62,694 nt of DNA from IMG/VR virus record IMGVR_UViG_3300034167_000773, positions 1-62,694 of that record; one strand, given 5' to 3'. Position 1 is the stretch's first letter; each line of letters starts with the position of its first letter. This DNA is from a virus (taxonomy: Duplodnaviria > Caudoviricetes). The position numbers and the translations under genes were made by a program. Below are positions 1,862 through 6,140 of this stretch, piece after piece. The notes under the pieces were generated by a model. That model was not told the origin of the DNA. It did no database searches and was given only the letters and a program-made list of their open reading frames with translations.

Positions 1862-2026
1862 TAAAAAAATAAGTTAGGACAATATATCCTAACTTATTAC
1901 TGTTAAAACACCATACAAAACACAAAAAGTTTCTTGTTTATAAGGTTAATATAAAGGAAATAAAGTAAGGGAGAATATCTCCCCTAATTTATATAACTAT
2001 TTATTCACAATTAACCAAAACACATG

Positions 2027-2100
2027 TGACTCTGGTAGGATTCAAACCTACAACTTTCACCTTAGAAGGGTGACACTCTATTCAATTGAGTTACAGAGTC
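2027..2100 (-). tRNA. tRNA-Arg (anticodon UCU), CCA not encoded
   Basis: GACTCTG-TA-ACTC AATTGAATA GAGT-G-TCACC CTTCTAA GGTGA-AAGTT-GTAGG TTTGAAT CCTAC-CAGAGTC-A folds as a full cloverleaf. Confidence 0.9.
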
Positions 2101-3716: not shown

Positions 3717-3995
3717 TCATTTGTTTATAATAACAACTGTTGTATACTGATAACGTCTAGAGCTAGGATATGCTAACTCATGTTTTGGCATCTGATTGTA
3801 GATGATTCTAATAGTATCACCTACTTTGTACATATCTTTATGCAATATTTCAGCATAATAGATAGGACTACAACAAGTCTCTTTTACAAGAACACTTGGT
3901 GTAATAGTTTCTTTTTCTTTAGCACAACTAGTAATCATAGTTACTAGTAATAACAAACTAATAATAGTTTGTTGAGCATTACTTATTTTCTTCAT
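3717..3995 (-). CDS. Lipoprotein
   Basis: Hydrophobic stretch ending ITSC then AKEKE; shares MY[KR][VL]GDT[IV] with 5211..5408. Confidence 0.7.
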   Translation of the reverse strand: MKKISNAQQTIISLLLLVTMITSCAKEKETITPSVLVKETCCSPIYYAEILHKDMYKVGDTIRIIYNQMPKHELAYPSSRRYQYTTVVIINK

Positions 3996-4329: not shown

Positions 4330-4433
4330 GAGTTACCTGCTAAGATTACAATTTTACCTACAATAACAAATAGTGCTAATGTTGCAACTATTGTTATAAA
4401 GATGTCTAATGCTAGATCTCTGTACTTATCCAT
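4326..4433 (-). CDS. Small single-TM protein (35 aa, MDKYRDLALDIFITIVATLALFVIVGKIVILAGNS)
   Basis: Not in the ORF track; A-rich leader, stop overlaps the next start (ATGA). Confidence 0.6.
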   Translation of the reverse strand: MDKYRDLALDIFITIVATLALFVIVGKIVILAGNS

Positions 4434-4498
4434 TTTGTTTTTTTTTGTTAATGTGTGAATAAATAGGGAATTTCACCCTAAAATTTCTTACAATAGAT

Positions 4499-4792
4499 TT
4501 AAACTTTAGGTAATTCTGCTACTTTATCACAAGCAGCTAAAACCTTATTTAAATCTTTACAAAAGTACCCATACTCCTGTTTTAGTTCATCATTTAATGA
4601 TGAACAAAAGAATGGATCATATGAGTCTTCTACATAAACAATTAAGCCATAGTAGACAAACCTAAAATCCTCATCATCATGTACAGATGGAGTATTTTTC
4701 ACGATTATTAAACTATAACCATTAGGTAATGTTTTTGTATACTCAGTATTTCCACCATGTACATTTCTTTTTTTAAACTCTTCAATATTCAT
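4499..4792 (-). CDS. Hypothetical protein
   Basis: Start placed at ATG 4792 (MNIEEFKK) after an A-rich leader; the longer start overlaps the ribozyme. Confidence 0.7.
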   Translation of the reverse strand: MNIEEFKKRNVHGGNTEYTKTLPNGYSLIIVKNTPSVHDDEDFRFVYYGLIVYVEDSYDPFFCSSLNDELKQEYGYFCKDLNKVLAACDKVAELPKV

Positions 4793-4915
4793 GTTTTGTT
4801 GTTTTTTAAATTGTTTTAAATTAAGAATATTTCTTGTGTTAGTTGTAATAGATAACTCTTGCAAGTTATTGTTAGCATATATCCCTATACTATTACAACT
4901 ATACACAAAAAATAA

Positions 4916-5090
4916 TTTGCCCATCTGCACTCAGTTGTAACTAATAAATTCACCTTTAGATACTGTGTATCATCTGGGTTTTATTATTAATCTACTCAGT
5001 TATTCAACTCCTCAAAACTACAATCTAATGAGTAAGTGAGATTATTACAATTGCTCACCCTTTGGAAGTGAGTTATGGTGCATTAACAAA
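4916..5090 (-). ncRNA. Twister ribozyme, type P1, with a long P5 insertion
   Basis: P1 UUUGU/GCAAA; UAA; P2 UGCA/UGCA; CC; P4 CUCAC/GUGAG; L4 (U)UCCAAAGG; P5 CAAUUGUAAU/GUUACAACUG; GA-UGG. Both pseudoknots are Watson-Crick (CCA/UGG and CC/GG). Confidence 0.8.
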
Positions 5091-5091
5091 A

Positions 5092-5121
5092 AGGAATACA
5101 AGTATTGCTACCTGTATTCCT
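5092..5121 (-). terminator. Terminator-like hairpin abutting the twister P1
   Basis: AGGAATACAGGTA-GCAA-TACTTGTATTCCT followed by TTTT. Confidence 0.55.
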
Positions 5122-5142
5122 GAAATGCTGATTCAACAGAAA

Positions 5143-5208
5143 TTATTTTCTGTCATATGCAATAGCATCCTCAATGGATACTATTACACCATTGATAATG
5201 GCGCACAT
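5143..5208 (-). CDS. Possible 21-aa peptide (MCAIINGVIVSIEDAIAYDRK)
   Basis: ATG 2 nt after the lipoprotein stop; could equally be non-coding hairpin sequence. Confidence 0.3.
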   Translation of the reverse strand: MCAIINGVIVSIEDAIAYDRK

Positions 5209-5210
5209 AG

Positions 5211-5408
5211 TTACTTAACAATAAGATACTTGTTTCTATTTACATATACTGTATCTCCTAATCTATACATAGGATCTACGTTAATTAAATAGATAGCACT
5301 TGATGCTTTGTTATCTAAAGGACCAATAAGTCTTGCTCTGACTTTTTTATCATTTGAGCAAGAAGATAAGGCAGCTACTGCTGCAATAAGAATGAGAAGA
5401 TTTTTCAT
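5211..5408 (-). CDS. Small lipoprotein
   Basis: MKNLLILIAAVAALSSC lipobox followed by SNDKK. Confidence 0.8.
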   Translation of the reverse strand: MKNLLILIAAVAALSSCSNDKKVRARLIGPLDNKASSAIYLINVDPMYRLGDTVYVNRNKYLIVK

Positions 5409-5435
5409 TTGGTTTGTGAAATTTAAATTAAAACA

Positions 5436-5590
5436 TGTGTTTTACACCTAAAACTTTATACTTATCATAGTATTGTGGTAGTTATAGCAGTTTATTACTA
5501 TATACTAGTATTCCACAACCTATTTACTGAATGGATAAGAATTTACTAAAGAAACTGGTGCCCTCAACAACTTGGGAAGTTATTAAGTTT
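5436..5590 (-). ncRNA. Circularly permuted twister-like RNA lacking P4
   Basis: UCCCAAGU-U-GUU-GA-GGG-CACC ... GGUG-UAA-AAC-AC gives T1 CCC/GGG, P1 CACC/GGUG, UAA site, P2 AAC/GUU and T2 AC/GU; no P4 3' strand. Confidence 0.55.
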
Positions 5591-5706
5591 TTTGTGAATT
5601 TATTCTCAGAGTTAATAGCCATAGTAACCTAAACTTGTATGTGATAATACAGTTGATGATTACTTTGCTTCCAAAGAATAAATAAGAGAAAGGGGAATTT
5701 CACCCC

Positions 5707-6015
5707 TTAAGAATATCTATCTCCAGGTTTTCTACCTTTAGAGAAATGTTCTACAACATCTCTTTCAGTAGATTCCCTTTCAATAAAGTATTCTGTTGTT
5801 CTATCATCAACAGACTTGGATGGTTCTCTATAAGACCATTCAGTAAGAGTTCTATGATGAACAGTATTACTAAGACGTTCTCTATCTTTAATAAAAGTAA
5901 AGATGTCTGTACCTAACTCTTCTTTAACCATATCATTTAACTTGTGAAATAATTGGTTATAATCATTAAGAGTCTTTTGATTTCTAATGTTGTGTAATTC
6001 TTCTTGAATAGACAT
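5707..6015 (-). CDS. Hypothetical protein
   Basis: 102-aa ORF followed by the hairpin AAGGGG-TGAAATT-CCCCTT. Confidence 0.7.
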   Translation of the reverse strand: MSIQEELHNIRNQKTLNDYNQLFHKLNDMVKEELGTDIFTFIKDRERLSNTVHHRTLTEWSYREPSKSVDDRTTEYFIERESTERDVVEHFSKGRKPGDRYS

Positions 6016-6140
6016 TGGTAATTGTAAATAAAAAGTTTGGCTATAATTATTTATTAAAACAACAACTAAGGAATAGCAGATACTTAAAAGTTGAGTGATA
6101 TAGTATTAGAGTGATTATCAATCACTTATGAATAAATTTA

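Follow-up and report, generated by a model that had tools for sequence, protein, structure and literature searches.

Two conserved twister-like RNA families of phages and their placement around a small lipoprotein-type gene

Twister ribozymes are the closest described relatives of two structured RNAs, here designated M1 and E2, that lie on either side of a small lipoprotein-type gene on the minus strand of IMG/VR virus record IMGVR_UViG_3300034167_000773. The record is a 62.7-kb fragment (completeness estimate 33% by CheckV) from a crAss-like phage of the Caudoviricetes; we analysed all of its 62,694 nucleotides and refer to this stretch as the window. Twister cleavage leaves a 5'-OH and a 2',3'-cyclic phosphate end. 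The Rfam consensus for twister type P1 (RF03160) reads P1-UAA-P2-GC-P3-P4 with the loop GUCCCAAGCC, followed by UAAA-P2'-GAGGG-P1'.

Engineered Tornado cassettes reportedly carry a P3-type ribozyme upstream and a P1-type ribozyme downstream. The window has a comparable geometry (PMC11263348), with M1 upstream and E2 downstream of the segment between them; unlike Tornado, it has no end-joining stem, and we found no conserved pairing of M1 with E2. For bacterial twisters, a role in mRNA processing has been suggested previously (PMC6765202). Ribozymes that flank phage genes, and the circular RNAs they might yield, are not new either, both having been discussed in 2011 (PMC3088659). That study described clustered hammerheads flanking single prophage genes and proposed that they process long transcripts into single-gene mRNAs. 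The window resembles these (pro)phage clusters in placing several putatively self-cleaving motifs between small genes of varying identity (PMC3088659). It differs in that the motifs belong to two uncatalogued twister-like families with complementary predicted cut positions, at the 5' end of E2 and at the 3' end of M1.

Two conserved RNA families

Comparison with GenBank phages by blastn returned matches for a single part of the window, positions 5544-5599, which aligned to 13 records of crAss-like phages (88-91.5% identity), in each of them once and in a gap without annotation; the four of these records that we opened belong to the Suoliviridae and Steigviridae. A degenerate-pattern search found M1 at no fewer than 113 viral loci, that is, at least 113. 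Among the matches listed, 111 of 118 sources carry the 3' half of the element 20-149 nt downstream of the 5' half, while in the remaining seven it is cut off by the locus end (five), has a variant tail (one) or is disrupted (one). In the alignment, the 5' and 3' halves of M1 are both conserved, and a variable hairpin lies between them. The family order is leader, UUCCCAAG, one base, CAUU, GA, GGG, a CACC…GGUG hairpin, U^AA, AAUG and C, and the window copy has UGUU for CAUU and AACA for AAUG (Table 1). The U, AAA and C of the tail are invariant or nearly so. CACC and GGUG are invariant, and the stem beyond the internal loop has changed on both sides in six of its seven pairs. Minimum free energy folding pairs CACC with GGUG in 82 of the 86 distinct inserts, which are 20-149 nt long.

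Two further pairings in M1 covary. The T1-like pseudoknot is CCC/GGG in 66 and UCC/GGA in 30 of 96 unique sequences, with no mixed combination under a pattern that permitted all four; across 57 distinct rows, the first C and the third G of GGG form C-G in 35 and U-A in 22 and are never unpaired. The tail helix, in which the triplet after AAG-N pairs with the triplet after AAA, can form in all 96 sequences. It appears as CAU/AUG, UGU/ACA, CGU/ACG and UAU/AUA, plus wobbles, and its column pairs are compensatory (33-218, CG in 35 and UA in 21; 34-217, AU in 33 and GC in 21). A formal count over 58 of 111 unique sequences, at most 192 nt long and one per distinct insert, found 94.7% of cells paired, against 83.0% in shuffled alignments and 24-46% in slid controls, and none of 500 shuffles reached the covariation score. 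M1 is thus a genuine conserved RNA family, more than chance would produce. It occurs once per locus, with 101 covariance-model matches in 100 loci, one of them weak. Ten pattern matches in bacterial genomes, on contigs that were small or came from metagenome-assembled genomes, were set aside.

A core-pattern search found E2 at 119 or more viral loci, and both conserved flanks are present in 114 of the 121 matches listed, giving 99 unique copies. The order of the element is P1, UAA, P2, CC, a short junction, P4 with loop UUCCCAAGG, P5, A, P2', GA, GGG and P1'; family-wide, the P4 loop is UUCC(C/A)AAGG, P2 has 4-5 bp, P3 is absent and P5 is long. For T1, 67 copies have CCC/GGG and 20 have CCA/UGG, while the remaining 12 are in part register errors of the parser; column pair 31-173 is C-G in 40 rows, A-U in 18 and unpaired in two. 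All five P2 pairs are possible in 92 of the 99 copies, with compensatory versions UGCAU/AUGCA and UGUAC/GUACA, and with UGUAU/AUACA among divergent members. The junction-proximal part of P1 forms all four of its pairs in 45 copies (shuffle mean 7.5, maximum 16). The base before the predicted cut is U in 93 of the 99 copies and the AA is invariant. The GA just 5' of the T1 strand is nearly invariant and matches the GAGGG of the Rfam twister-P1 consensus.

P4 of E2 is invariant as CUCAC/GUGAG in this pattern-selected sample, in which the search pattern itself fixed P4; divergent copies found with the covariance model (loci L061, L031 and L051) have the compensatory versions UCUAC/GUAGA, CUCUA/UAGAG and CUAGU/ACUAG. 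The formal count for E2 covered 60 of 105 unique copies, including two mis-trimmed rows that were counted as unpaired. P1, P2, T1 and P5 each have pairs changed on both sides, P1 in all eight of its pairs; the covariation score was reached by none of 500 shuffles, and all measures lie above every shuffle. E2, too, is a genuine conserved RNA family rather than a product of chance. A sequence-only reading of the window had proposed two twister-type RNAs here, and family size and covariation establish both as real, conserved and twister-like at the same minus-strand positions. A blastn search of GenBank phages with one E2 copy gave no match. In bacterial genomes, the E2 pattern matched 99 times, which is about the chance expectation for 16 fixed bases, with both flanks in only about seven cases, and these candidates were rejected.

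Some copies of E2 are degenerate (L085:1686-1818, L051:12889-13004, L031:8494-8675 and L085:1947-2120), one of them without the 5' strands of P2 and P4. Their position beside intact copies of M1 or E2 suggests that these modules turn over. Tandem E2 pairs on one strand occur in L217 (about 366 nt apart) and L277 (about 390 nt apart); cleavage of both members would free a fragment consisting largely of the ribozyme itself.

Relation to twister

E2 shares with twister type P1 the P1 helix by the U^A step, the UAA, the 4-bp P2, to which E2 adds a fifth pair, the P4 loop with UCCCAAG, the 3-bp T1 to the strand after GA, and the P1 closing strand. Its helices other than T2 show compensatory changes in keeping with the type P1 layout. 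Of the features that a review treats as defining for twister (PMC5408937), E2 has P1, P2, P4, T1, a scissile N-A beside P1 and a conserved G; the scissile A and the conserved G both have counterparts that are invariant or nearly invariant. Unlike type P1, E2 has no P3, and a P5 insert of at least 43 nt in the parsed copies replaces the UAAA junction; T2 would be CC/GG and not GC/GC, and the loop contains one extra U. From these comparisons we identify E2, with fair confidence, as a likely variant of the type P1 twister.

The UAA, GAGGG and UCCCAAG blocks of the Rfam twister-P1 consensus recur in both E2 and M1 at corresponding positions. M1 resembles the permuted twisters of types P3 and P5 in having a P1 closed by a hairpin and a predicted cut at the 3' end of the element. 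It also has the L1 layout of twister, with UAA opposite GA-GGG, and the 4-bp helix, and its predicted cut position corresponds to the UAA beside P1 in the twister-P1 consensus. Unlike types P3 and P5, M1 ends in neither of those helices, its chain opening instead between the 5' strand of P2 and the junction to L4. Further differences from twister are an A-rich leader and a U-rich internal loop without counterpart, and the missing 3' strand of P4, for which there is no room because a single nucleotide separates UUCCCAAG from the tail-pairing strand. M1 may therefore be described as a circularly permuted and more radical relative of twister, and we judge the chances for and against its being catalytically active to be about even.

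The leader of M1 has features of its own. Its C or U is correlated with the base after AAG (64 C with A, 20 U with U, 12 other), without forming a consistent Watson-Crick pair. The A-rich leader (5588-5593) and the U-rich loop (5552-5556 and 5449-5453), both invariant, could form a U-A-U triple helix.

Twister-sister is a more distant comparison. Its loop is vaguely similar and it has a conserved A 3' of the cut (PMC5408937); it cuts the opposite strand and has no pseudoknots, whereas E2 and M1 each have a covarying T1. The Rfam twister-sister model gave no match in window positions 4400-6100.

Standard annotation does not report either family. At the gathering score, Rfam finds only a tRNA-Arg in the whole window, and at E <= 10 it finds no ribozyme family in window positions 4400-6100 or in loci L048, L042, L008, L121 and L205. 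RF03160 has no match at E <= 10 in the window's own record and none to E2 in the relatives L042 and L048, and even the minimal M1 copy, 85 nt in L008, has no Rfam twister match at E <= 10. RF02684 was likewise without a match in the records of five relatives, a result of little weight since the control was silent too. The 68-position Rfam model plausibly misses E2 because P3 is absent and P5 long. In the literature we found no twister paper on crAss-like phages and no account of either motif, although the supplementary tables of non-coding RNA surveys might list them.

When 17 further loci were searched with the E2-derived model, a single weak match was obtained, in L115. The stretch concerned (L115:9463-9533, minus strand) is a compact type-P1 twister with P3 and with T1 as UCA/UGA. 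It scores 53.1 bits (E = 1.5e-11) with the Rfam twister-P1 model, below the gathering score of 67.2 bits, and would therefore be missed by standard annotation.

Arrangement, predicted processing and competing explanations

M1 and E2 do not form a conserved unit. With the covariance models, E2 was found in 8 of 100 M1 loci and M1 in 3 of 100 E2 loci; two complete genomes have one M1 each and no E2, and three genomes estimated to be 77-88% complete have one or two E2 and no M1. Where the two occur together, the commoner order is E2 followed directly by M1, the reverse of the window. They are adjacent in this order in L048, L031, L085 and L165, separated by 22 nt in L051, and further apart in L061, L209 and L142. 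M1 followed by E2 around a segment is seen in the window (359 nt, with the lipoprotein ORF), in L042, which equals L228 (252 nt, with no ATG-started ORF of 15 aa or more), in L090 and in L033, where the 1296-nt segment contains a 160-aa ORF. In L121 and L205, the closest relatives by synteny, a lipoprotein gene, the hairpin and E2 are retained, and an unrelated structured element takes the place of M1. The conserved pairing that the sequence-only reading had set as a test of its cassette was accordingly not found in the relatives.

The element in place of M1 (L121:12270-12395, minus strand; L205:6838-6960) is about 120 nt long, has three inner hairpins and is closed by a 10-bp stem of UUUGAUUACA with UGUAAUCAAA. 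It has no Rfam match, and a strict pattern found it at only three loci.

We infer cleavage, the exact cut sites and any effect on mRNA from the conservation, the covariation and the layout shared with twister. On this basis, M1 and E2 would be transcribed as parts of a leftward polycistronic small-gene transcript and would cleave themselves at U5444^A5443 and U5085^A5084, the same two sites that the sequence-only reading had named. The M1 cut would leave a clean 5' end, with the lipoprotein start codon 35 nt further on, the E2 cut would give a 3' end just past a protective hairpin, and both together would release a 359-nt monocistronic lipoprotein mRNA whose terminal nucleotides, as twister chemistry predicts, would be A5443 with a 5'-OH and U5085 with a 2',3'-cyclic phosphate. 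Since the cut is predicted at the 5' end of the motif in E2 and at the 3' end in M1, the gene or spacer would be released nearly free of ribozyme sequence, as the earlier reading had also proposed for the 359-nt segment. With M1-gene-E2 the gene would be released, and with E2-M1 between two genes both RNAs would remove themselves; in either order, the layout predicts mRNAs that retain almost no ribozyme sequence.

Two surveys of context fit mRNA processing. Among 102 M1-site contexts examined, 95 have a qualifying ORF within 1500 nt, and in 37 of these 95 the site precedes an ATG-started ORF of 40 aa or more by at most 60 nt. For E2, folding of the last 45 nt ahead of the site gives -8 kcal/mol or better for 44% of 97 copies and for 23% of 91 controls, so the terminator-like hairpin that the earlier reading raised as a caveat is a moderately enriched feature upstream of E2; the relative L121 has the same hairpin as window positions 5092-5121 ahead of its E2. 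The E2 site of the window follows this hairpin at a distance of 7 nt, and terminated and cleaved transcripts would therefore end almost alike. M1 and E2 probably trim the lipoprotein message. More generally, we think it fairly probable that the two represent phage RNA families which are widespread and uncatalogued and have the twister double-pseudoknot core as their basis, and whose function would most likely be self-cleavage and mRNA processing.

Several observations weigh against self-cleavage. P4 and T2 are rated essential or critical for twister (PMC5408937), and in our alignment M1 has no P4 3' strand and no demonstrable T2. The CC after P2 and the GG ending L4 of E2 are pairable as T2, and they show no variation across our samples. 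No Rfam twister model scores M1 or E2 at E <= 10, even in the shortest copies, and the terminator-like hairpin before E2 could limit E2 transcription. M1 also has a competing 5' hairpin of CUCAA with UUGAG, 11 bp in the window copy, which buries the CCC and the tail-pairing strand and is an alternative to T1 and the tail helix. By nearest-neighbour folding, this hairpin is favoured by 6-10 kcal/mol across six copies, and by 10.4 kcal/mol in the window copy (-38.2 against -27.8). M1 may be bistable; alternatively, the 5' hairpin could act in place of P4 and the tail helix in place of T2. As an equivalent of P4 the hairpin was rejected, since it overlaps the covarying pairs and shows one-sided changes only, none of them compensatory, and we keep it as an alternative or competing fold.

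These points bear on the explanation that only E2 is a ribozyme, and that M1 is a non-cleaving regulatory or scaffold RNA, a bistable frame that displays its variable hairpin and may bind a protein or polymerase. The lack of P4 and of a demonstrable T2, the strongly favoured 5' hairpin, the single M1 per locus (101 matches in 100 loci) and per complete genome, the invariant A-rich leader and U-rich internal loop without twister counterpart, and an insert that differs in nearly every lineage would all suit such a role. Yet M1 has the exact twister order and letters (UAA, the 4-bp helix, GA-GGG and P1), covariation backs precisely those two pairings that would form a twister active site, M1 is repeatedly found immediately after E2, and the 5' hairpin lacks compensatory change. 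We give this explanation a limited but real chance. It is unlikely that neither element cleaves and that both twister-derived folds serve some other purpose, for example in RNA stability or in binding a protein: the helices and unpaired blocks of the twister core all have counterparts in E2, with compensatory changes in the helices other than T2, and the near-invariance of the scissile A and conserved G equivalents also speaks for catalysis, even though no Rfam twister model matches either RNA, E2 lacks P3 and departs in T2 from the conserved GC, and degenerate E2 copies exist (L085, and the second copies of L051 and L031).

The sequence-only reading went further and proposed a possible excision and circularisation cassette, in which cleavage by both RNAs would be followed by ligation of the ends by RtcB, giving a circular lipoprotein mRNA. 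The geometry is that of the engineered Tornado design, with twisters that leave RtcB-compatible ends (PMC11263348); M1-then-E2 bracketing is also seen in L042/L228, L090 and L033, and RtcB was found in a Bacteroides control genome. Against this, the pair is not conserved and its opposite order is commoner, the bracketed content varies between loci, and no RtcB gene was found in the 62.7-kb window, itself a fragment, where a phage-encoded one had been considered. The predicted product ends, read from their sequences, form only four offset base pairs and no end-joining stem. Circular products were also sought around clustered hammerheads and not detected (PMC3088659). Circularisation of the released RNA is consequently unsupported and quite unlikely. 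The most elaborate version appears very improbable: that M1 is an active ribozyme of new architecture, without P4, with a new opening and perhaps with its leader docked in the loop, which together with E2 forms a Tornado-like cassette whose 359-nt mRNA is circularised by host RtcB and made exonuclease-proof.

If M1 cleaves, twister can do without a stem that has been rated essential for it, and crAss-like phages, including records from human faeces, would contain a new twister permutation; structural biologists would gain a minimal twister, and annotators two models absent from Rfam. If it does not cleave, M1 is nonetheless a highly conserved single-copy phage RNA. With their complementary predicted cut positions, M1 and E2 point to a simple rule by which early transcripts of phages could be processed without scars, and they would offer ready-made natural parts for RNA engineering.

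The surrounding genes

The large genes of the window, which encode up to 3973 aa, are all on the plus strand from about 7.5 kb on, while the small genes around M1 and E2 are on the minus strand and run leftward; the next ORF follows E2 on that strand (Table 1). The hairpin ahead of E2 resembles a terminator in the terminator-like scan, and its U tract doubles as the 5' strand of E2 P1.

Table 1. Features of the M1-E2 region in window coordinates
Feature	Position	Strand	Description
102-aa ORF	6015-5707	minus	Upstream of M1; terminator-like hairpin at its end
Terminator-like hairpin	5708-5690	minus	At end of 102-aa ORF
M1	5433-5600	minus	Two-part pseudoknotted twister-like RNA; covariance model match, window copy included in model
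M1 leader	5587-5593	minus	AAAAAAC; invariant or nearly invariant alignment columns
M1 L4-like block	5571-5578	minus	UUCCCAAG; CCC 5576-5574 is the 5' strand of the T1-like pseudoknot
M1 tail-pairing strand	5569-5566	minus	UGUU; pairs with tail AACA 5441-5438
M1 GA	5565-5564	minus	Followed by the T1 3' strand
M1 T1 3' strand	5563-5561	minus	GGG
M1 P1	5445-5560	minus	CACC 5560-5557 with GGUG 5448-5445
M1 P1 internal loop		minus	U-rich, conserved; AGUUU 5556-5552 and UUUUA 5453-5449
M1 variable hairpin	5551-5454	minus	Inside P1
M1 3' tail	5436-5444	minus	Predicted bond U5444^A5443, AA, AACA 5441-5438, conserved C5437
Predicted double-cleavage product	5085-5443	minus	359 nt, computed from the predicted cut sites
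Lipoprotein-type ORF	5211-5408	minus	65 aa, …LSSC… signal; ORF list
21-aa ORF	5143-5208	minus	ORF list as sole basis for gene status
Hairpin	5092-5121	minus	13 bp, then UUUUUGUU; terminator-like scan
E2	4913-5093	minus	Twister-like RNA, type-P1 layout; covariance model match, window copy included in model
E2 P1		minus	UUUGU 5090-5086 with GCAAA 4920-4916
E2 predicted scissile bond	5085/5084	minus	U5085^A5084, then AA
E2 P2		minus	UGCAC 5082-5078 with GUGCA 4930-4926
E2 P4		minus	5072-5068 with 5058-5054, closing loop UUCCAAAGG (5067-5059)
E2 GA	4925-4924	minus
E2 T1		minus	UGG 4923-4921 pairs with CCA 5065-5063

Pfam returned no family for the 65-aa lipoprotein-type ORF or for the other neighbouring small proteins (five small proteins searched). 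Small lipoprotein-type ORFs recur beside RNAs of the M1 and E2 types, at window positions 3717-3995 and 5211-5408 (minus strand) and in L048, L042, L121 and L205, and none of them has a Pfam family.

A short hairpin of the GGGGUGAAAUUCCCC type followed by a U-rich run is repeated after successive small genes, at window positions 5690-5708 and 4464-4480 (minus strand) and in L121 and L205. This recurrent hairpin is a gene-end or terminator element of the lineage. The tRNA-Arg has the anticodon UCU and lies at window positions 2026-2100 (minus strand), within the same leftward block of small genes.

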